A stretch of DNA of 64,000 bases. Source: Candidatus Moraniibacteriota bacterium (GTDB lineage Bacteria > Patescibacteriota > Minisyncoccia > Moranbacterales > UBA1568). Shown piece by piece: positions 1,312-19,846 of the stretch. Below the pieces are notes generated by a model, which was not told where the DNA came from, did not search any database, and saw nothing but the letters and a program-made list of their open reading frames with translations. Numbering within the stretch: position 1 is the first letter of the stretch; each line of letters starts with the position of its first letter. The DNA lies in contig CP064975.1 in assembly GCA_016699425.1 (NCBI GenBank), positions 194,979 through 258,978 on the forward strand, given 5' to 3'. The translations under genes and the position numbers were made by a program.

Positions 1312-1382
1312 GCGGGTATAGTATAGTGGTAATACGTGACCTTCCCAAGGTTAAGCGACGAGTTCGATTCTCGTTACCCGCT
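1312..1382 (+). tRNA. tRNA-Gly (anticodon CCC)
   Basis: Cloverleaf read by eye: acceptor GCGGGTA/TACCCGC, D-stem GTAT/ATAC, anticodon stem TGACC/GGTTA with loop TTCCCAA, T-arm ACGAG-TTCGATT-CTCGT, discriminator T. CCA is not encoded. The spurious ORF 1326..1592 overlaps it. Confidence 0.8.
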
Positions 1383-1482
1383 CAATGTTTTTTAGGTGAG
1401 GCATGGGTTCCCTGCCTGTCGGCGGCAGGGATTTACGTATCTCGCCTAGTACTGAACGGCAGTGGTATACTGGAGGAAATAT

Positions 1483-2253: not shown

Positions 2254-2333
2254 GTGTTTCCCACGTGTGTTGGCGACTCCACACCATCTGCTGCGCCAGT
2301 GAGGTATGAGTACCGTCAGCGGTTCACCTCAGA

Positions 2334-4289
2334 CTATTCGGCCTCCTTCGTCGCGACCGATGACTCGGTTAGCCAATCGTTCAAGAATCCGTTCAAACTG
2401 CTCTGCCAGTTAGCGAGGAAATCGTCGCTTTCAAAGAGTTCGAATGGGAACAGGGAGAGTGGGAACGTCGCGCGGGAGAGATGAAGCTTCTGAAAGAGTA
2501 CCGAGAACTCAGAAGATGATTTGATGGATTCTTGCGCCGGGTCATGGGCTCCCTCAACTGGCAGGGGGACATCCTCTGGTCCCATCGTCTCGCTGGTAGG
2601 TGTCGGAGCAGCAGTTTCGTCCGACACATTCGTTGTTGCCTCGGTTTCTTCGCTTGGTGCGGTGCTGGGATCTTCAGCCGCGCTCTCCTCGATCGGTTCG
2701 GCTGGCGTCGTGATGGTGACGAGTGACTGACCCTTTTCCTTCCTCAACAGGGTATCGTCGGCTAAGCTTTTTTCGAACTTATATTTCAGGTGTTGAATGG
2801 CTTTGCCATCCGGGGTGCGCAGCTCGACATGGCCACGCTCATTACCAAGGGTGAAGAGCGAGTGCGCGCGGGTGAGCCGTCTCACGGATTTCGGTGGGAT
2901 GATGAAATCTTCGCGGATCGGGTGATTAGTGATGGATTTCTTCTTGGTTCCCGTCGCGATACTGAAACCTTTTAAATTGATTTCGCGTTTTTCCCGATTC
3001 TCGATCTCAATCCACTCTAAATCTGAGTCATTGCCCTTGGGATTCGGCAAGAGAGAAACAATGCGGACTTTCGGCGCGGCATATTTCTCGATCTTGATAT
3101 CAAACGTCTCTCGCGTCGTATCGATACCGTCATCGGTCGTCAATGTGATCGTGTAGCGTCCGGACTTCACATATTTGTGCGACGTATTTTCTTTGAAACT
3201 TTTGTGGCCATCGCCGAAGTCCCAGGTGAATTTCAACTTGTCGCCGTCCGTGTCCTTGCCGCGGGCACGGAATTCGATCGCGAAGTTGCGGTGGCCTTTT
3301 TTCGGGACGCGTTCCTTCGTCACTGGATCGGTATTCTCACTATTCGCCGCACCCGGTGTCGGTTTGCGCGCCCCACGGAGTACTCCTGCGACGAGATTGA
3401 GGGAGACGCCTTCTTTCGTTTTCTCATACTGTACCCGATGCACGAGCCGCTTCTGGCTGTCGCTGAGTGAGAGCGTTTCGTGGGAATTGTTTAGTGACAA
3501 GGAAAACTCTTTGTCTGTGATGACGAGATAACTGAGGGCGGAAAGCGTCGTCCCGTCGGGAAAGACATATTTCCCCGTCGTTGGAGCGTCACGGAGTTCC
3601 CAGCCGGAGAGGTCGATAGTTTCCATGCCGGGGTGGTAGAGCTCGATGAATTCGCCCGCGTCACCCTTTTCTTTTGGGTTCGGTAGGACCTCATTGATGA
3701 ATAACTGATAGAGACTGGGTTTCGTTCCGGTGCCCACGGTTTCATCGGTGACGACAAAGAGCTCACCTCTCGAGTTTGTCGGTGTCAGGCTGATCGTCTT
3801 GGACCATGTGAGTGCGACAGGATCACGGACGAAGCTTTCTTTCTCTGCGGGATTGCCAAATTGCGTCGGTGCAAAGGGAAGTGCGTGCCCGGTGCCCCAG
3901 GTGAGCGAATCGATGAGCGTATCGTCTTTGTCATACAGCGCGAGGCTGTTGTTGTCCGACAGGCTCGAGCCGGTTGTCGCATCGGCATGGTCCTTATACA
4001 TACTCGCACTGTTCGCCCAGAGGAAATATCCGTGAGCAGGGATGCTGTCAGTACTGCCAAACGATTTCAGTGAACTACCCGTAGCGGTCATATCGCTGAC
4101 GCTCTTCCGGCGCAGGCTCCAACCCGACAGATTCACGGCTGTGTCGCTGCTATTGTAGAGTTCGGCGAACTCGTCTGAGGCTTTCGCACCAGCGATCGCT
4201 ACTTCACTGAGTATCACCGTGGCGAATACCGGAGTCGGAGCGAGGAGGATGATGATGCTAAGGGCGAAGAAATAAGAGCGTACGGACAT
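2334..4289 (-). CDS. secreted cell-surface protein with two lamin-tail domains (LTD) and a PKD domain
   Basis: Internal start MSVRSYFFALSIIILLAPTPVFA gives a signal peptide. Two LTD-like motifs: INEVLPNPKEKGDAGEFIELYHPG...LSGWELRD and IVSLLPNPKGNDSDLEWIEIEN...LKGFSI. PKD-like motif FTWDFGDGHKS...YVKSGRYTITLTTDDG. ORF-track 2334..4394 has a 35-aa 5' extension with no signal-peptide logic. Confidence 0.7.
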   Translation of the reverse strand: MSVRSYFFALSIIILLAPTPVFATVILSEVAIAGAKASDEFAELYNSSDTAVNLSGWSLRRKSVSDMTATGSSLKSFGSTDSIPAHGYFLWANSASMYKDHADATTGSSLSDNNSLALYDKDDTLIDSLTWGTGHALPFAPTQFGNPAEKESFVRDPVALTWSKTISLTPTNSRGELFVVTDETVGTGTKPSLYQLFINEVLPNPKEKGDAGEFIELYHPGMETIDLSGWELRDAPTTGKYVFPDGTTLSALSYLVITDKEFSLSLNNSHETLSLSDSQKRLVHRVQYEKTKEGVSLNLVAGVLRGARKPTPGAANSENTDPVTKERVPKKGHRNFAIEFRARGKDTDGDKLKFTWDFGDGHKSFKENTSHKYVKSGRYTITLTTDDGIDTTRETFDIKIEKYAAPKVRIVSLLPNPKGNDSDLEWIEIENREKREINLKGFSIATGTKKKSITNHPIREDFIIPPKSVRRLTRAHSLFTLGNERGHVELRTPDGKAIQHLKYKFEKSLADDTLLRKEKGQSLVTITTPAEPIEESAAEDPSTAPSEETEATTNVSDETAAPTPTSETMGPEDVPLPVEGAHDPAQESIKSSSEFSVLFQKLHLSRATFPLSLFPFELFESDDFLANWQSSLNGFLNDWLTESSVATKEAE

Positions 4290-4352
4290 AACCGGATATG
4301 GGTAAAATTTCTGAACGCTCCAGCCTAGCAGATCCGCCAGCAATTTCCAGTC

Positions 4353-4381
4353 TTGACAAAAAATTTCATTCATAGTTAGAT
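4353..4381 (+). promoter_or_regulatory. sigma70-like promoter (TTGACA-17-TTAGAT) upstream of CDS 4451
   Basis: TTGACA at 4353-4358, 17-nt spacer, TTAGAT at 4376-4381. AGGAG RBS at 4434-4438, 7 nt before the ATG. Confidence 0.4.
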
Positions 4382-4450
4382 ACCAGTCTGCCAACCAACT
4401 GGTTTGTGCAGAAAACAGCCCTTCGACAACTTGACTATTAGGAGCAAGAA

Positions 4451-5146
4451 ATGGCCATGTCCAGAAATCAGCTCAACCGTGCTATGAACGGCCTCCGTCC
4501 CGGTGATGTGCTCACGAACCTGAACTGCGGTGGCTGCCAGAACCGCCAGATCCTGGTCTTGGCCCGTGCCGGCGATTATCGCTACGACTTCTCGGTCCGT
4601 GCCGACGAGGTCAAAATCATTCGCGATTCCAAGGGCCCGTGGCGCTGGGTCGAGCACGAGCAGGTCTTCCGCAACAGCGATGGCCTGGTGCACGACCACA
4701 TCGGCACCGAGATCGAGGTGCGCGAGGGCGCTGGCTTACGCGAACTGCAGTGGTACCGCGAACTCCCGAGCCCGGGGCTGGTGCGTTTCCACATCGATCC
4801 GCGGGGCGCACTCGGTTCCTTCCGGGATCCGTCGACCGAGGCCAAGCTCGAAGCCATCGTCAATCGTTCCGACGACAACGATGGCTTTGCTCGCGACTTG
4901 CAGCAAGCCGTCGAACTCATCTTTGCCGGGTCAACGGACGCGGTGGACGAACGCCGTATGCGCTATCTCGTCAGCCTCGTCCACGCTGTCGGGCAAAAGC
5001 TCGGCCGCGACCGTCAACCGGGCGCTGAAGACATCCTCATGTCTATCCTCATGGGAGGTGAGGGCTTTGCTGATTTGCTGGGCGCCGCCGGTCGGGCCGA
5101 ACGTCACCGCGCCGAATCCAATGGCGCTACCCGCCGGTCCGCGTAA
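4451..5146 (+). CDS. hypothetical protein in a high-GC island
   Basis: 231-aa ORF with a good AGGAG RBS. GC is about 63% with strong GC3 bias, versus ~53% in the flanks, and several overlapping shadow ORFs typical of high-GC coding DNA. No recognisable domain. Confidence 0.55.
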   Translation: MAMSRNQLNRAMNGLRPGDVLTNLNCGGCQNRQILVLARAGDYRYDFSVRADEVKIIRDSKGPWRWVEHEQVFRNSDGLVHDHIGTEIEVREGAGLRELQWYRELPSPGLVRFHIDPRGALGSFRDPSTEAKLEAIVNRSDDNDGFARDLQQAVELIFAGSTDAVDERRMRYLVSLVHAVGQKLGRDRQPGAEDILMSILMGGEGFADLLGAAGRAERHRAESNGATRRSA

Positions 5147-5297
5147 ACAGGACTAAATAGTCCGGCTGAGTTCATTTGCGTCCATCATTATGGACACTGC
5201 GTCACATGGCGACCCCGCCTTGTGACGTTTTTTCTTTTCTTAAGCCAGTCGCTTTCCCTGCCATAAAGACGCATTTGGATGTCTTACCGCGGAATAC

Positions 5298-5324
5298 TTG
5301 ACAGTAATTGATCGCTTCTATAAG
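5298..5324 (+). promoter_or_regulatory. candidate rRNA operon promoter (TTGACA-15-TATAAG)
   Basis: TTGACA 5298-5303 and TATAAG 5319-5324, about 530 nt upstream of the 23S 5' end. The intervening leader is non-coding. Confidence 0.4.
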
Positions 5325-6091
5325 ATAGAGAAACCGCTTTAGAAACGGCAAAACATTACTCAACTGTGGAACTCAACGGTAACTAAATACGGATCGATTG
5401 AGTAGGGTGTATACCGGCTCAGAACCGGATTTTTTTTTGAAAACAAGCTTGTTCGGAAAGAGAGAGGTTTGGGCTTGCCCCGTACCACACCTGCCGAGGT
5501 ATGGTTATGAGGCAAAAGTTTTTTCTCGCAGCATCTCTGATCTGTCGTGAGTAACGATAGAAGCCAGGTGTGGTGATGGGGTGAAACTTCCTCCAGGATT
5601 CATCTTTCCGCGCAAGAAATCTTAACAATCATTGAAGTCTTTGTGAGTACGCCGAATATTGTGCCGCATGCGCGGGGCTAGGGCGAGTATACTCAAAAGT
5701 CAACGTTGTAAGGTCGCTGTATCATGTTTCGTCAAGGGACATGGTATGGCAAGCAATAGAAGAAACGGTGAAGTCTGCGCAAACATTCTTCATCGTCAAC
5801 TGAAGTGTCCGTGAGTGTTCTAGCAATAGAGCATTGGCGGACATTCAAATGAAAGCAGGTTACCAACGCAGAGTGTGGATGCCTTGACTTATGCAAGCGA
5901 CGAAGGACGTAGGAGGCTGCGAAAAGCCCCGGGGAGCTGTCAACCAAGCTGTGATCCGAGGATATCCGAATGGGGCAACCCTCTGGTAGCAATACCGGAA
6001 CGATAGTCTGAATACATAGGGCTACCGAGCAAACCCAGTGAATTGAAACATCTTAGTAGCTGGAGGAAAAGAAATTAATAAAGATTCCGTC

Positions 6092-6125
<34 letters not shown>

Positions 6126-6421
6126 ACCATGTTTACATGAGTGGGGTTGCAGGGCTGATGGACTCGATTGATCGGGGTCCAGTACAATCGTTAGGAGAAG
6201 GTTCTGGAAAGGACCACCACAGGGGGTAATAGTCCCGTATCCGAAAACGATTTGTACTTGATGCATCAGTTCCTAAGTAGGGCGGGGCCGGAGAAACCCC
6301 GTTTGAATCTGGGAGCACTAACTTCCAAGGCTAAACATTGCATAAGATCGATAGCGAACTAGTACCGTGAGGGAAAGGTGAAAAGCATCCCGAAAGGGAG
6401 GTGAAATAGAACTGAAACTCT

Positions 6422-6810
6422 CTGCTAACAAAGAGTCGGAGCCGTGCCTCAATTCTGTTGAGTACGGAATGACCCGCGTAACCGCTGACCAAACAACACT
6501 CAGTTTCAATGACTGAAACTTCATGCATTTCATTGAGGAAAAAACGGCGCGTGTATAGCTCAGTTGGTAGAGCGCTTCCTTGCCAAGGAAGAGGTCACGA
6601 GTTCGAGACTCGTTACGCGCTCCACTCTCCCTAGCTAGAGTGGTTATTCCTCGAACGGTGAAGGTACAATGTATCCTCGCCTCCTCAATGAAGTGCATGA
6701 ATACTTTCGGAATTTGAAATTGATTGTTTGTATTCTTTTGGCGGATAGGTGGCATTCTGTAGTGGATAGAATTGAGGTACGGTGACGGCGTGCTTTTTGC
6801 AGCACGATCC
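6422..6810 (+). other. intervening sequence / expansion at 23S helix 25 (about E. coli positions 530-580) containing a tRNA gene
   Basis: 23S collinearity breaks after GAACTGAAAC (6412-6421) and resumes near TGTACGGTTTGTCTAAGGGATGACGAG...GTGAAAGCGAGCCTGAATAGGGCG (~6790-6860). An inverted repeat CTTCATGCATTTCATTGAGG (6524-6543) / CCTCAATGAAGTGCATGAAT (6683-6702) brackets the tRNA. Confidence 0.65.
6548..6623 (+). tRNA. tRNA-Gly (anticodon GCC) with encoded CCA, nested inside the 23S rRNA helix-25 intervening sequence
   Basis: Canonical cloverleaf. Acceptor GCGTGTA/TACGCGC (7 bp, one G-U), U8 A9, D-stem GCTC/GAGC with loop AGTTGGTA. Anticodon stem CTTCC/GGAAG with loop TTGCCAA, variable AGGTC, T-arm ACGAG-TTCGAGA-CTCGT, discriminator T, CCA at 6621-6623. 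Confidence 0.85.
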
Positions 6811-7939
6811 AACGAGTTTGTTCTGTACGGTTTGTCTAAGGGATGACGAGTTCCGGAGACATAGTGAAAGCGAGCCTGAATAGGGCGAAATTATAATCGT
6901 ATGGACAAGACCCGAAGCCGGGCGAGCTACACTTGAGCAGGGTGAAGCGTGGGTAAAACCACGTGGAGGCCCGAACCCACTCGCTGTGCAACACGAGGGG
7001 ATGACTTGAGTGTAGGGGAGAAATTCCAATCGAGCTCGGCAATAGCTGGTTCTCTCCGAAATAGCTTGAGGGCTAGCGTCCTGTGTATATTTATCCGAGG
7101 GGTAGAGCTACTGGATGAGACTCCGCGCGCAAGCGTAGGTGTCTCAACCAAACTCCGAATACTCGAGATAACGAACAGGGCAGTCAGTACTACGGGGCTA
7201 AGCTCGTAGCACAAAAGGGAAACAGCCCAGATCGTCAGCTAAGGTCCCTAAATCTATGCTAAGTGGGAAAGGAAGTGGAAACTCTCAGACACTGAGGAGG
7301 TTGGCTTAGAAGCAGCCATCCTTTAAAGAGTGCGTAATAGCTCACTCATCTAGAGATTCTGCGCCGACAATGTAACGGGGCTAAGCATAGTACCGAAGCT
7401 ACGGATTTCGTCGCAAGACGGAGTGGTAGGAGAGCGTCCCATGTGCACCGAAGCGGAAGGGCGACTGACCGTGGAGCGCATGGAAGTGAGAATGTTGGAA
7501 TGAGTAACCGCAATGTGAGTGAGATCCTCACACATCGAAAGTCCGAGGTTTCCTGGGCCATGGTGATCACCCCAGGGTTAGTCGGTCCTAAGGCGAGGCT
7601 GAAAGGCGTAGTCGATGGACATCAGGTTAATATTCCTGAACTAGGGTTTTATTCGAAGGAGTGACGCATCGTTGTATCGTTCGCCCCTTATTGGATTGGG
7701 GTCGTGTTTCTGAGGATGTCATGTAGGCAAATCCGCATGGCGCGTATCCGATGGAAATGGGCGTGGTCCCGCTTCGGCGGGACGAAGGGAAGAGAGCACG
7801 GTGCCAGGAAAAGCTTCTTAGTTATGTAAAACTCTATCCGTACCGCAAACCGACACAGGTGGACAGGGCGAGTAGCCTAAGATGAACGGGAGAGCATTCG
7901 TTAAGGAACTAGGCAAAAAAGCTAGACGTAAGTTCGCAA

Positions 7940-8446
7940 TATGTCTTCCCGGCTTTACATTCAGTTCTTCAGAATCATTGAAGAAGATGAGTCAATCGGG
8001 GAAGTCAAGGAGAAATAGGAATTTTTGGAACGAAGGTGGAACATGTGGTGTTGTATGGCTGTCGTCAGCTCCGTGTCGTGAGATGCTGGAGAGCGAGCGC
8101 AACCCCTTTGCTAGCTGCTCTTCTGCAATTCGAGAAGCGCGCAGCTGGGACTGCCGGTGACAAACCGGAGGAAGGTGGGGATGACGATCCAGTCCTCGTA
8201 GCCCATGAAGTGGCCCGGCGAACGCCGCGCCAGTAACCACAGCCGTGGCCAGCAGCCGCGGTAATCACGGTATTCGTTTCCAATTGGATCAGGCGGAGAG
8301 CGCTCCAAGGCAGGGATTAGATACCCCGTGCACGCGCTCACGCCCTCCGTAATTCCTACGTTTCTTTTTCCTTGGTCTTCCCCGACCAATTTCTTCTTCG
8401 TGAGGACTGAAGGTTTGAATGTAAAGTCGGGCGCAGCGAAAGTTTT
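7940..8446 (+). other. ~500-nt expansion in 23S helix 63 region composed of rearranged 16S rRNA-like segments
   Basis: Lies between 23S ...GGAACTAGGCAAAAAAGC...CGCAATATGTCTTCCCGGC and ...CAAGCAACTGTTTACCAAAAACACAA. It carries 16S-type motifs: GGAACATGTGGTGTTGTATGGCTGTCGTCAGCTCCGTGTCGTGAGATG, GAGCGCAACCCC, and GACTGCCGGTGACAAACCGGAGGAAGGTGGGGATGACG (8150-8187, 16S ~1175-1200). Then GTGGCCAGCAGCCGCGGTAAT (8246-8266, 16S ~515) and GGATTAGATACCCC (8314-8327, 16S ~790). Their order does not match 16S order. Confidence 0.6.
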
Positions 8447-8905
8447 TCAAGCAACTGTTTACCAAAAACACAACTCTCTGCAAACCCGCAAGGGGAAGTA
8501 TAGGGGGTGACACCTGACCAGTGCTGGAACGTTAACGGGAGCGGTTCACGCCAATCCCCGAAGCGCCAGTGAACGTCGGCGATAACTATAATCGTCCTAA
8601 GGTAGCGAAATTCCTTGTCAGGTAAGTTCTGACCCGCATGAAAGGTGTAATGACTTGAAAACTGTCTCAACGAACATCCCGGTGAAATTGCAATGACGGT
8701 AAAGATGCCGTCGACCTGCAGCAAGACGAAAAGACCCCATGGAGCTTTACTACAACTTGGTATTGACTTAGAGTTTTTGTTGCCGAGCATAGGTGGGAGA
8801 CGTTGAAGCGCGGGTTCAGGCCTGCGTGGAGTCAACACTGGAATACCACCCTGCAAGAATTCTAATTCTAACCTGCCACCATAATCTGGTGGGGGGACAG
8901 TGCCT

Positions 8906-8940
<35 letters not shown>

Positions 8941-9160
8941 AAGCAACGGAGGCGTTTACAAAGGTAGGCTAGGCCCGGATGGAAATCGGGCCGATAGCGC
9001 AAACGCACAAGCCTGCTTTACTGAAAGACTCATCAGTCGATCAGTCACGAAAGTGGAAGTTAGTGAACCGACCATCACTCGTAGGAGTGTGGAAGATCAT
9101 CAGATAAAAGTTACCCTGGGGATAACAGGCTGATCCTATCCAAGAGTCCATATCGACGAT

Positions 9161-9203
<43 letters not shown>

Positions 9204-9274
9204 GAGAAGCTCCCAAGGGTTTGGCTGTTCGCCAATTAAAGCGGTACGTGAGCTGGGTTCAAACCGTGAAGCAG

Positions 9275-9950
9275 CGAAGCTGCTTGACTGAGTAACCAAC
9301 AATAAACAACCTACAACAGAATTGGAATGCATTTTTGTTGTGAGTAGAAAGTTGTCGGTTGTCGGTTAAAGCATTTAGCTTTTTCACAGTTTGAATCCGA
9401 GGTAGAAGACATCAAAGGTATTTTCGTCTTTGAAACAACGATAAGAAATCAATCGCATCACGGCGGTCCTTTCTTTCACTTTACGGTGGAAAAAAGGAAC
9501 AAGCTGACTCATTTCGGTGGAGTCCGACATCTATCAAAGGTTGTCTGGATAATACCGAGGGAAGTAAAAGTTGTGAGTTTCGTAGAGAGTAATCTCAATG
9601 AATTAAGGTAACGTTCGACTGACGTCATGTGCACCATGAGCGTTAGTGTCTCGTAAGAGACTAGGACACATCAAGTCTGTTGTCGGTTAAGTCGTAAAGA
9701 CTGCGCGCAGCGCCGACAGTAAGTTGATGGACGCAGGGGAAGATCCTGTTGCCTTAATGAGATAAAGTTATGAACCTGAACCGGGTTCATGCTTTCTACG
9801 AAATTCATGATGAGTAACACCCGTAGAGACTAAACGTCAGCATGGATAGTGGTGATGATGAAGGGTTTGGAAATTCATCTAATTTCTAACATCTAACATC
9901 TATCATCTCTCCATAAGCTATAGTCCAATGCATCGAGCAATCGGTGGTAC
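9275..9950 (+). other. ~680-nt intron-like insertion in 23S at the I-CreI/I-CeuI homing-site position (E. coli ~2593), no intact ORF
   Basis: 23S reads GGTACGTGAGCTGGGTTCAAACCGTGAAG up to ~9270 and resumes ...GGTGGTACCATGCGTGAGACAGGTTGGTTTCCTATCTGC at ~9950. The equivalent E. coli sequence GGGTTTAGAACGTCGTGAGACAGTTCGG is contiguous. No ORF of 60 aa or more lies inside. Confidence 0.55.
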
Positions 9951-10098
9951 CATGCGTGAGACAGGTTGGTTTCCTATCTGCTGTAGGCGTTAAGTGACTT
10001 GAGAGAACTCTTTCCTAGTACGAGAGGACCGGAAAGAACGAACCTCTGGTGTGCCTGCTGTCCTGCCAAGGGCACCGCAGGGTAGCTATGTTCGGGCA

Positions 10099-10131
<33 letters not shown>

Positions 10132-10512
10132 GAGCTCAAGATAAGGTCACGTCCCTCACCAATTTTGTGCAGCGCAAGGCGCAAACAAAAACCTCGTTTA
10201 AATCTATTGAGATGACCGTCTCAATAACTGGACGAGAAGTGCATAACGGAAAAGTTATGGCGCAAAATTGGTGAGGGAGGAAGTCCTGGAAGATGACCAG
10301 GTTGATAGGTTGCAGGTGTACGCCCTGTGAGGGGTTCAGCCGAGCAATACTAATACGATTCCATACCACTTTCATTTGTATTCAGTTGGCGGTGAAGAGT
10401 GCTTGAAAAGCCCTCTCGTCTCCATTGCAGTCTTACAACTTTGCAGCTTCATTTCAAACCAGAGTTTCTGGCCCGCCTCGCGTCGATAAGCAGCGCGAGT
10501 CGAGGTGGGTGC

Positions 10513-10555
10513 CTCTAGCGACCGGGAAACACCCGATACCTTTCTGAACTCGATG
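10513..10555 (+). repeat. partial duplicate of 5S rRNA 5' half
   Basis: CTCTAGCGACCGGGAAACACCCGATACCTTTCTGAACTCGATG versus 5S CTTCTAGCGAAGTGGAAACACCCGATCCCTTTCCGAACTCGGCAG. Confidence 0.6.
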
Positions 10556-10565
10556 TTTGAAAAAA

Positions 10566-10681
10566 TAGTTCTCGGTGCTTCTAGCGAAGTGGAAACACCC
10601 GATCCCTTTCCGAACTCGGCAGTTAAGCACTTCAGCGCCGATGGTAGCCTCCGGGCAAGAGTAGGCCAGTGCCGAGAACTA
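10566..10681 (+). rRNA. rrf: 5S ribosomal RNA
   Basis: Helix I TAGTTCTCGGTGC / GTGCCGAGAACTA. Internal CCGAACTCGGCAGTTAAGCACTTCAGCGCCGATGGTAGCCTCCGGGCAAGAGTAGGCCAG matches 5S consensus (CCGAACUCAGAAGUGAAAC...GCGCCGAUGGUAGUG...GAGAGUAGG). Confidence 0.8.
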
Positions 10682-17750: not shown

Positions 17751-17821
17751 AGTAATAATTTATTATCCTTTTAATTTGACAGCGGAAGACGTTTGTCTTC
17801 TCGTTGTCTCACTCATGCACT

Positions 17822-19846
17822 ATGCAAGAGAAGCATCATGACAAGCCATTGGGTTTGTCCAGTAGTCCGGCACCGATCGGCGCGTATGAGGGCATCGTCG
17901 CCCAGCGCCAGAATCCGCGCCGGCCAAAGCAGTCGCAGAAGCGATTTACTCGCCCGGCGGGACCGCGTCCTGAACGGACCGGTTCCACCTCGGTACCGGG
18001 TACATCGGCTGAGCCCAAACGGGCTAATCCGCGCGAAGGTGGCAAAGGCCGTCCGCAAGGTGGCGGAGGCAAGCATGGCGGCAAACGCGGTTTCGGCACC
18101 CAGCCGATCGTGCGCAATGTGAACGCCCGGAAGACCGGTGCGCCAGATGTCCCAGCGATCGAAGCTGGCAAACTCCGCATCATCCCGATTGGCGGCCAAG
18201 AAGAAGTCGGTCGCAACATGACGGTATTCGAATACGGTGAAGATATCATCATCATCGACATGGGTTTGCAATTCCCCGAGGAAGACATGCCGGGTATCGA
18301 CTATATCGTACCGAACGTCTCCTACCTCCGTGGTAAGGAAAAGAATATCCGTGGAGTGCTCTTCACTCACGGCCACCTCGATCACATCGGTGCCGCGCCG
18401 ATCCTTCTGAAACAGCTCAATTACCCGACTATCATCGGCCGTGACTTCACTCTCGCCCTCATCCAGCGCAAGTGTGAAGACGAAGAGAAGGGCTCGGCCA
18501 AGAAACTCAAAGCGATCCGAGTGAAATCGCTCACCGATCGGATCAAGCTCGGCATTTTCGAGATCCGCTTCTTTGAAGTCGAGCACTCGATCATGGACGC
18601 GATGGGTATCGCCATCGTCACACCGAATGGCTCGATCATCCACATGGGGGATTGGACGATCACGAACGATCCGATGGATTCGGCGGCGCCCGAAGTCAAT
18701 TACAATCATCTCGAGGAATTGCCGCAGCCGACCTTCCTTATGCTGGAGAGTCTCGGTGCTCTGAAAAAGGGTCTGCCGCCATCAGAGACGGAAGTCCACA
18801 CTAATCTCCAGAACCTCATCAAGAGCGCACCGGGGCGAATTATCATCGGCACGTTTGCTTCGCAGATTCGCCGGGTCGCCTACCTTATCGAGTATGCCGA
18901 ACGGCAGGGCAAGCGGGTCGCGCTCGAAGGCTACAGTATGAAGGTGAATATCGAAGTCGCTCAAGAACTCGGCTACTTGAAGGTGAAGAAGGAAACGTTG
19001 GTGCCCGTCGCAGATATCCACAAAGTGCCGAACAATCAGATCGTCGTCATCTGTACGGGCGCGCAGGGTGAACAGAACGCGGCGCTCTCGCGGATCGTCA
19101 CGGACAATCATCGTTTCATCAAACTGGAGAAATCCGACACCATCGTTTTCTCATCGTCCGTTATCCCGGGCAATGAACGCTCCATCCAGCGACTGAAGGA
19201 CAATCTCTACCGCAAGTGTGACAACGTGGTCCATTCGGACATCATGGAGATCCATATCGGTGGCCACGGCACTATCTGGGAGATCGAAGAGATCCTCCGT
19301 CAGGTGAAGGCCACCTATGTCTTGCCTGTCTATGCGAATCACTACTTTCTCAAGGAAGCCGCCCGGATCGCCTTCCGTCTCGGTTACCCGGAGAAAAATG
19401 TCTTCGTCCTCGACAATGGCGGCGTGCTCGAAGTCCCGAAATCAGGCGACGGTATGCCGAGTATCCGCAAGGAGAAAGCCGATGCGAGCTATGTCTTCGT
19501 CGACGGACTCGGTGTCGGGGACATCGGCCACGTCGTTCTCCGTGATCGCCAGATGCTGGCCCAAGACGGGATGCTCGCGGTGACGGTCGTCATCGACAGT
19601 CGGTCCAAGAAGGTGCTCGGCAATATCCAGATCACCTCACGCGGCTTCATCCATGTGAAGGAGAACTTCGACCTGGTGAACGAAGCGAAACGCAAGGTCC
19701 AGGATATCATCAAGAAGAATACCTCGAAGGACACCTCGCTCGATTGGGAATTGGTCCGCAATCAGATCCGCGAACAGATCGGTCAGTTCCTCTTCCAGAA
19801 GACGGAACGCCGACCGATGGTCTTGCCAGTAGTGGTCGAAGTGTAA
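17822..19846 (+). CDS. rnj: ribonuclease J (metallo-beta-lactamase/beta-CASP) with ~115-aa basic, low-complexity N-terminal extension
   Basis: KLRIIPIGGQEEVGRNMTVFEY...VLFTHGHLDHIGAAP...HIGGHG, RNase J signatures. First ATG in frame at 17822 (ORF-track start 17804 is TTG). The N-terminal ~115 aa are R/K/P/G-rich. Confidence 0.85.
   Translation: MQEKHHDKPLGLSSSPAPIGAYEGIVAQRQNPRRPKQSQKRFTRPAGPRPERTGSTSVPGTSAEPKRANPREGGKGRPQGGGGKHGGKRGFGTQPIVRNVNARKTGAPDVPAIEAGKLRIIPIGGQEEVGRNMTVFEYGEDIIIIDMGLQFPEEDMPGIDYIVPNVSYLRGKEKNIRGVLFTHGHLDHIGAAPILLKQLNYPTIIGRDFTLALIQRKCEDEEKGSAKKLKAIRVKSLTDRIKLGIFEIRFFEVEHSIMDAMGIAIVTPNGSIIHMGDWTITNDPMDSAAPEVNYNHLEELPQPTFLMLESLGALKKGLPPSETEVHTNLQNLIKSAPGRIIIGTFASQIRRVAYLIEYAERQGKRVALEGYSMKVNIEVAQELGYLKVKKETLVPVADIHKVPNNQIVVICTGAQGEQNAALSRIVTDNHRFIKLEKSDTIVFSSSVIPGNERSIQRLKDNLYRKCDNVVHSDIMEIHIGGHGTIWEIEEILRQVKATYVLPVYANHYFLKEAARIAFRLGYPEKNVFVLDNGGVLEVPKSGDGMPSIRKEKADASYVFVDGLGVGDIGHVVLRDRQMLAQDGMLAVTVVIDSRSKKVLGNIQITSRGFIHVKENFDLVNEAKRKVQDIIKKNTSKDTSLDWELVRNQIREQIGQFLFQKTERRPMVLPVVVEV

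Follow-up and report, generated by a model that had tools for sequence, protein, structure and literature searches.

Can a bacterial 23S rRNA gene carry a complete tRNA gene within its own sequence, and could that tRNA be released when the rRNA precursor is processed? The question is raised by a stretch of 64,000 nucleotides (nt) of contig CP064975.1 (positions 194,979 to 258,978), here called the window, from an uncultured ultra-small Candidatus Moranbacteria bacterium of the candidate phyla radiation (CPR). The apex of helix 25 (H25) of its 23S rRNA gene is replaced by an intervening sequence (IVS) of ~340 nt, at the tip of which lies a tRNA-Gly(GCC) gene. A preliminary description made from the letters of this DNA had reported a tRNA in H25 and guessed at a CPR host; the nearest genomes, as found by way of FtsW, are indeed those of Candidatus Moranbacteria/Moraniibacteriota.

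The nested gene is the following:

6549 to 6624, plus strand: tRNA-Gly(GCC), 76 nt, identified by ARAGORN and Rfam, with the CCA end encoded at 6622 to 6624.

Both predictors called a tRNA, as expected from the canonical tRNA-Gly(GCC) described earlier, and the encoded CCA was confirmed; the coordinates given previously (6548 to 6623) were off by one base. The Rfam RF00005 score was 68.8 bits (gathering score, 29) with the full model (positions 1 to 71) covered and an E value of 6.7e-13 in the whole window, and the gene outscored the other two tRNAs of the window. Reading the sequence directly, we found perfect D, anticodon, and T stems and an acceptor stem (GCGUGUA/UACGCGC) with a single wobble pair, U4.G69, so that the earlier statement that all stems are perfect holds except for this pair. 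The T-loop is TTCGAGA. The rules of glycine identity are well established, and direct reading showed the set to be complete (G1:C72, C2:G71, G3:C70, U73, C35, and C36), as are the nucleotides involved in tertiary contacts (U8, A14, G18G19, U33, G53:C61, T54-Psi55-C56, and A58). With a cloverleaf above the curated thresholds, the anticodon GCC, and these identity and tertiary nucleotides, the gene at 6549 to 6624 is a genuine, canonical bacterial tRNA-Gly(GCC). Four locus tags lie between IPJ68_00965 and IPJ68_00990, and two proteins, the 23S gene, and the 5S gene account for them; by this count, the deposited record may lack an annotation for the nested tRNA. A tRNA hidden in an rRNA gene can be overlooked in this way, and the genome can be wrongly scored as lacking that tRNA.

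The operon in which the tRNA gene resides has these elements:

5298 to 5326, plus strand: promoter-like site TTGACA-17-TAAGAT, 10 of 12 consensus positions, candidate promoter of the 23S-5S operon (consensus scan).

5852 to 10362, plus strand: 23S rRNA gene with three large insertions (Rfam large subunit [LSU] model, rescan, and blastn against Escherichia coli rrlH).

6443 to 6781, plus strand: H25 IVS, ~340 nt, replacing the H25 apex (E. coli ~540 to 552).

10571 to 10677, plus strand: 5S rRNA gene in the same operon as the 23S gene (Rfam, 84 bits).

The Rfam LSU_rRNA_bacteria match (model positions 1 to 2925) begins at 5852. Its first version placed the 3' end of the gene at 9384, which we rejected as an alignment artefact of an intron-like insertion: a rescan of 7850 to 10600 reached 10362 (model position 2912), and blastn against rrlH was collinear up to E. 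coli position 2760 (window position 10123). No 16S gene is found upstream of the 23S gene. The candidate promoter is predicted by its match to the consensus; homology between the window and its close relative L002 (GCA_049645545.1) starts exactly at this site (window position 5298, L002 position 3482).

That the tRNA gene lies inside an H25 insert, as the preliminary description had it, was seen in the Rfam LSU alignment and with both blastn and MAFFT. In the Rfam alignment, the large insert follows model position 583 and lies in the 5' strand of the H25 stem, and collinearity with E. coli rrlH stops after E. coli position 540 (window position 6442) and resumes at about position 552 (window position 6782). 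The insert is thus ~340 nt and not ~390 nt long, and it interrupts the gene after E. coli position 540 and not at about position 520, as had been proposed. The replaced segment falls within the apex (E. coli ~533 to 560) at which H25 IVSs are found.

Is the tRNA physically inside the 23S gene, or were two sequences joined during assembly or binning? rRNA genes are hard to assemble, and in this population the majority of short-read contigs terminate in the 23S gene. Contigs reached through FtsW and its neighbour end within the 23S gene before H25, and those reached through the upstream DUF975 gene stop short of the 23S gene itself because of ~9 kb of extra genes in the relatives. One further contig, L098 (ENA ERZ24875786, NODE_35486; SPAdes; 1436 nt), derives from a different sample and assembly and from a slightly diverged strain. 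It was reached through a protein search with a 164-amino-acid antisense open reading frame (ORF) of the insert, the match being a spurious gene call (P0011). L098 spans the 23S gene, one arm, the tRNA, the other arm, and the 23S gene again and aligns with window positions 5952 to 7387 at 99.0% identity (14 substitutions, no gaps), and it has the tRNA-Gly(GCC) of the window in the same position between the arms. Because this independent contig has the same arrangement, misassembly is very unlikely. In addition, the sequences on the two sides of the tRNA can pair with each other, and both have homologues in the IVS arms found in relatives, a pattern that a chimera would not produce. The window also matches QQR78835.1, QQR78836.1, QQR78838.1, and QQR78839.1 on a 1,217,328-bp contig of a Candidatus Moranbacteria metagenome-assembled genome, which is consistent with a closed long-read genome. 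The tRNA-bearing arrangement, represented by two assemblies (the window and L098), is almost certainly real, and an assembly or binning artefact is scarcely credible.

How is the tRNA held within the rRNA? Three nested inverted repeats build a single imperfect duplex of roughly 100 bp, and the parts of the insert follow each other in this order:

6442 to 6471 (5' arm) and 6753 to 6782 (3' arm), plus strand: basal stem, inverted repeat of 30 nt, 80% complementary.

6495 to 6518 (5' arm) and 6705 to 6728 (3' arm), plus strand: middle stem, inverted repeat of 24 nt, 75% complementary, within the stem of the minimum free energy (MFE) fold.

6520 to 6539, plus strand: 5' arm of the innermost stem, TTCATGCATTTCATTGAGGA, pairing with 6682 to 6701 (20 nt, 95% complementary).

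6540 to 6548, plus strand: A-rich leader, AAAAACGGC, joining the innermost stem to tRNA position 1.

6622 to 6643, plus strand: 7-bp hairpin CCACTCT-CCCTAGCT-AGAGTGG followed by TTATT, a terminator-like scan match that overlaps the CCA end.

6644 to 6681, plus strand: 3' linker leading from the cargo to the innermost stem and containing a small hairpin, aligning weakly to the L002 allele.

6682 to 6701, plus strand: 3' arm of the innermost stem, TCCTCAATGAAGTGCATGAA, inverted repeat.

The MFE of positions 6400 to 6840 was -191.5 kcal/mol, compared with -123.6 +/- 5.6 kcal/mol for shuffled sequences (z = -12.2), and the fold keeps the cloverleaf at the tip of the long duplex. There the duplex closes a multiloop containing the mostly unpaired leader, the cloverleaf, the 7-bp hairpin at 6622 to 6643, and a further small hairpin. 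The bracketing inverted repeat proposed earlier at 6524 to 6543 and 6683 to 6702 exists, with corrected coordinates of 6520 to 6539 and 6682 to 6701, and is the innermost of the three stems; this 20-bp stem is the most RNase III-like duplex of the insert. The A-rich part of the leader is unpaired in the MFE fold, with its last one or two bases prolonging the acceptor stem. Such an unpaired A-rich leader is what would be expected of an RNase P substrate, and cleavage by this enzyme can be inferred.

The insert has the properties of an H25 IVS: its ends pair into an extended duplex, and its length and tip vary among close relatives. A consensus scan revealed no promoter-like site within the IVS, and an E-value scan of 6430 to 6795 against Rfam returned the tRNA and chance-level matches, with no intron or other family. 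An intron was rejected, as no catalytic core was recognizable by covariance model in this interval. The plus strand of 6400 to 6830 contains no credible ORF (the longest is 45 amino acids), and the 164-amino-acid minus-strand ORF runs antisense to the tRNA and the rRNA; a homing-endonuclease insertion was discarded, neither a LAGLIDADG ORF nor another endonuclease ORF being present in the H25 insert.

Could the insert instead be retained on the mature 50S subunit? The eukaryotic expansion segment ES7L also grows from H25, and the highly structured insert emerges at that very site, so it might be a counterpart of ES7L whose tRNA-shaped tip perhaps binds glycyl-tRNA synthetase or other tRNA-binding factors. 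Against this, near-perfect duplexes of 20 to 30 bp are classic RNase III substrates, and the cargo of relatives, with its ribosome-binding sites and ORFs, fits excised IVS RNAs and not segments that stay on the ribosome. Rapid turnover by presence and absence speaks against a structural role, and Brown et al. are said to have found in 2015 that CPR rRNA insertions are absent from rRNA transcripts. We consider a retained segment highly improbable.

Which part of the insert has been conserved was addressed by comparison with related 23S genes. The gene order 23S-5S-hypothetical-FtsW is conserved in the relatives, and each has a long-stem H25 insert with a different tip:

L002, 97% identical to the window through the operon: the same three stems, with window positions 6540 to 6673 replaced by 215 nt.

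L009, a sister species with 83% identical FtsW: the same basal stem, with a plain hairpin of ~190 nt.

L011 (CP064994.1), more distant: an H25 insert of ~420 nt with a small ORF preceded by a Shine-Dalgarno (SD) sequence.

L099, another CPR 23S gene: an H25 insert of ~210 nt without a tRNA.

No tRNA was found in the H25 inserts of these four; among the loci compared, only the window strain and L098 have one at the tip. The 5' arm of the basal stem is identical in L002 and L009, and its 3' arm is kept in both. When the 95 pairs of the stem were compared between the window and L002, 69 were unchanged, 6 were altered on one side, and 4 had compensatory changes, two of which affect adjacent pairs of the innermost stem (GC/CG to AT/AT). 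The tip of L002 (4749 to 4901) has an AAAGGAG-ATG small ORF for a 50-amino-acid peptide with a hydrophobic C-terminal tail. The tip of L011 (5067 to 5313) could encode a 45-amino-acid CPKCG peptide and a 31-amino-acid CSDC peptide, which jointly resemble a split zinc ribbon.

As the stem is kept while the tips differ, the stem is the conserved, selected part of the insert and the tip a slot for changing cargo; the different cargo, or its absence, in L002 and L009 in turn marks the tRNA as a recent, strain-level acquisition. We therefore regard the tRNA, recent cargo in a cargo-swapping IVS tip, as probably dispensable or duplicated. This tempers the strict stoichiometric coupling of tRNA to rRNA put forward in the preliminary description. 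Exact patterns of the tRNA core and of the lineage-specific base of the H25 stem had no matches in Joint Genome Institute (JGI) metagenomes, a collection that lacks this genus and so does not inform on prevalence.

The same comparison bears on the idea that the cloverleaf is a processing signal, recruiting RNase P and RNase Z to excise the insert, with decoding being secondary or absent. The tRNA does lie exactly between two parts of the 23S rRNA, and an organellar precedent exists in the LSU rRNA pieces of Tetrahymena mitochondria, which are split by a tRNA gene (Heinonen et al. 1987, as cited in PMC3318907). However, L009 and L002 have the stem without the tRNA and must process or tolerate their inserts, and sites for RNase III are available in the ~100-bp duplex anyway. 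Such tRNA punctuation is very unlikely here.

Where did the tRNA come from? Compared with the tRNA-Gly(CCC) gene of the window (1312 to 1383), the nested tRNA has in common six of the seven acceptor pairs, the whole T-stem (ACGAG/CTCGU), and U73, and on these features it looks native and not foreign. No matches to the nested tRNA were obtained in a scan of viral contigs, and blastn of the insert against phage genomes returned generic tRNA-Gly similarity (77 to 84%), with no sign of phage origin. Foreign origin was also considered through another tRNA-Gly(GCC) (match P0014 on L100), which is ~90% similar when the two sequences are compared by eye, has a different acceptor stem and T-stem, and proved uninformative on origin. 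That Logan contig (SRR34217593) has at 7482 to 8375 an array of nine tRNA genes (two Arg, two Asp, three Glu, and two Gly) which adjoins a gene for a ProQ-domain protein and unannotated ORFs and looks like a phage or plasmid array.

The allele-specific segment covers ~100 nt, comprising the 9-nt leader, the tRNA, and an 18-nt terminator-like hairpin, and is not part of the IVS backbone; in the alignment, the terminator-like hairpin at 6622 to 6643 is confined to the tRNA-bearing allele. A leader, tRNA, and terminator-like hairpin together fit the capture of a DNA segment, that is, of a tRNA gene with its terminator. The encoded CCA, which is missing from the window's two further tRNA genes, had prompted us to consider a retro-copy of a mature tRNA. 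This was weakened by the flanking leader and hairpin just described and by the relatives: the tRNA-Gly(CCC) of L102 encodes CCA where the window and L101 copies read CAA, and encoded CCA is therefore simply variable in the lineage. The contigs of relatives carry tRNA-Gly(UCC) and tRNA-Gly(CCC) within 10 kb upstream of the DUF975 gene, and no stand-alone tRNA-Gly(GCC) was captured in these upstream regions. The UCC and CCC genes are ~9 kb apart (626 to 697 and 9830 to 9901 in L101; 400 to 471 and 9048 to 9121 in L102). In the window, the nested tRNA-Gly(GCC) follows the tRNA-Gly(CCC) at a distance of 5 kb; if a UCC gene is located as in the relatives, all three glycine isoacceptor genes would be found within ~15 kb.

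How might the tRNA be produced? Since the IVS has no promoter-like site of its own, the tRNA would be made within the pre-23S transcript, from the rRNA promoter. RNase III would then cut the long duplex, as in known H25 IVSs, and remove the insert, leaving the 23S rRNA as a 5' piece of ~0.6 kb and the remainder. RNase P could cut at G6549, and 3' trimming would stop at the encoded CCA. The tRNA and its terminator-like hairpin would have been captured recently as a DNA segment by a tip that exchanges cargo between strains, and the nested gene most likely supplements a stand-alone tRNA-Gly(GCC) and does not replace it. We assign a probability of about 0.6 to the full functional reading, in which the nested tRNA is transcribed with the pre-23S rRNA, excised, and matured. 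The 23S rRNA would then exist in at least two pieces, and in three if the stem-type insertion at 7923 to 8450 were excised too.

Several observations weigh against this reading. The encoded CCA, together with the hairpin in which it is paired, could hinder 3' processing of the RNase Z type; CCA is an established anti-determinant for RNase Z. The terminator-like hairpin would need read-through. No RNase III or RNase P gene was among the window genes scanned, with no search aimed at them. The absence of the tRNA from the nearest relatives (L002, at 97% identity, and L009) indicates that the lineage does not require it. Finally, the five substitutions between the window and L098 within the insert (6468, 6656, 6664, 6706, and 6708) leave the tRNA unchanged, and this identity is uninformative, as ~0.8 substitutions are expected per 76 nt at 1% divergence.

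Might the tRNA then be a mere passenger, recombined into the tip, degraded with the IVS or redundant as a tRNA, and bound to decay or be swapped because it is not selected? Its strain-specific distribution and the other cargo at the same tip in L002, L009, and L011 favour this, as does the second stem-type insertion of the 23S gene, whose presence or absence between strains that are 98 to 99% identical points to fast turnover; the lack of substitutions in the tRNA is not significant. On the other hand, the tRNA is flawless, scores best in the window, and keeps all glycine identity elements. The fold places it in an unpaired multiloop behind a leader that is largely single stranded, the rRNA promoter would yield it in abundance, and no obstacle to maturation by RNase P is apparent. 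Passenger status is the more doubtful account of these features, though one to be taken seriously.

The opposite extreme is that the nested gene is the only tRNA-Gly(GCC) of the cell, essential, and made solely through excision from the 23S precursor, one to one with ribosomes. More broadly, the stem-enclosed IVS tips of this lineage would serve as sites of exchange, taking up genes or fragments of stable RNAs as well as small ORFs; this idea draws on the tRNA in H25, the 16S-motif mosaic in the second insertion, and the small ORFs of the relatives. We view this reading, in its narrow and its wider form, as speculative and distinctly unlikely.

If the nested tRNA is matured as we propose, it would be the first functional bacterial tRNA nested in an rRNA gene known to us, and the removal of an internal rRNA segment and the biogenesis of a tRNA would be a single event. 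The locus offers a natural setting in which to study how RNase III, RNase P, and 3' trimming handle a tRNA that a ~100-bp duplex encloses, and in which to learn whether CPR ribosomes tolerate 23S fragmentation at H25. The comparison of strains that are 97 to 99% identical also reveals cargo turnover at the IVS tips of CPR rRNA genes. Specialists would be surprised to meet a textbook tRNA inside a 23S gene of a bacterium; its patchy distribution and possible redundancy limit the claim.

The other two large insertions of the 23S gene and the surroundings of the operon differ between the strains as well. The second stem-enclosed insertion is at 7923 to 8450 (E. coli ~1683 to 1769; z = -7.9), with its L002 counterpart at 6263 to 6708. 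It is a scrambled mosaic of the most conserved 16S motifs (E. coli 16S positions 941 to 955, 1055 to 1071, 1103 to 1114, 1156 to 1193, 517 to 534, and 785 to 797), and Rfam scored 8047 to 8204 as small subunit rRNA (85 bits). The L002 mosaic at this site is different (1389 to 1400, 513 to 529, and 785 to 797), and the insertion is entirely missing from L090, L091 (whose flanks are 98 to 99% identical), L009, and L011. The third insertion, of 687 nt (9268 to 9954), is located in domain V at E. coli 23S position 2593/2594 and has its L002 counterpart at 7525 to 8027. The L002 version matched the Rfam family Intron_gpI with 45.8 bits, just below the gathering score; that of the window gave no intron match and has 300 nt extra (9519 to 9820) where L002 and L003 have 111 nt. 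No endonuclease-sized ORF is present in the domain V insertion.

The window lacks ~9 kb of genes that the relatives have in the interval from the DUF975 gene to the rRNA promoter (2254 to 5297 in the window versus 10787 to 20786 in L101 and 1 to 3481 in L002). The missing genes encode proteins of 318, 453, and 136 amino acids, a 1723-amino-acid alpha-2-macroglobulin/Hint protein, and Memo. In their place the window has an ORF of 231 amino acids (4451 to 5146; 63% GC) with a good SD sequence. Exact look-ups of this ORF in a collection of 15 billion proteins and of the full antisense ORF of the H25 insert found nothing on record for either. Downstream of the rRNA operon, at a distance of 8 kb, an RNase J gene (17804 to 19846; beta-CASP and RNase J C-terminal domains) encodes a possible player in the maturation of rRNA and tRNA ends.

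How does the locus compare with known systems? No account of a tRNA within a 23S gene, an IVS, or an expansion segment of bacteria turned up in a full-text literature search, in agreement with the preliminary description, whose author was aware of none. The systematic survey of CPR rRNA insertions (PMC11270868) makes no mention of tRNA; in CPR 23S genes it describes numerous short inserts that are not introns, located where IVSs are known to occur, and explains them as IVSs of the RNase III type. A recent study of introns in the tRNA genes of Patescibacteria does not mention nested tRNAs either. H25 IVSs and CPR rRNA insertions as such are known, and the tRNA cargo is, to judge by this search, previously unreported. 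Like the H25 IVSs of Salmonella, Campylobacter, and others, the present insert occupies the H25 apex, has ends that pair into a long duplex, and is sporadic or strain variable in its distribution (PMC11270868; PMC2801512). Those IVSs are excised by RNase III without religation, and the anatomy of the present insert suggests that it would be excised, too. They measure ~100 to 200 nt and contain no stable-RNA gene, whereas the insert described here is ~340 nt long with a complete tRNA at its tip. Group I and II introns and homing-endonuclease insertions share both the rRNA genes and the CPR lineages in question, but the H25 insert has neither an intron core nor an endonuclease ORF.

The helix-45 IVS of Coxiella burnetii, with its S23p ORF, is alike in that a processing stem encloses separate genetic cargo (PMC4990558). 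Here, however, the cargo is a tRNA and not an ORF, and the site is H25 and not helix 45. ORF-bearing IVSs of this kind are paralleled by the SD-preceded small ORFs of the L002 and L011 alleles. In operons of the E. coli type, tRNAs of the spacer between the 16S and 23S genes, and distal ones after the 5S gene, are co-transcribed with the rRNAs and set free by the action of RNase III and RNase P and by processing at the 3' end. The same co-transcription from an rRNA promoter and the same enzymes are proposed here; those tRNAs lie between rRNA genes, whereas the present tRNA lies within one, so that its release would be tied to the removal of an internal segment of the 23S rRNA. The closest organellar parallel is that of Tetrahymena pyriformis mitochondria, where a tRNA gene parts two LSU pieces, the 5' one of which, rnl_a, is ~280 to 300 nt long (Heinonen et al. 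1987, as cited in PMC3318907). In that account, the pieces are rearranged, the arrangement is fixed across the ciliate lineage, and it has no long enclosing stem. The present case, in contrast, concerns a bacterium with collinear 23S pieces, a strain-specific tRNA, and an enclosing duplex of ~100 bp.

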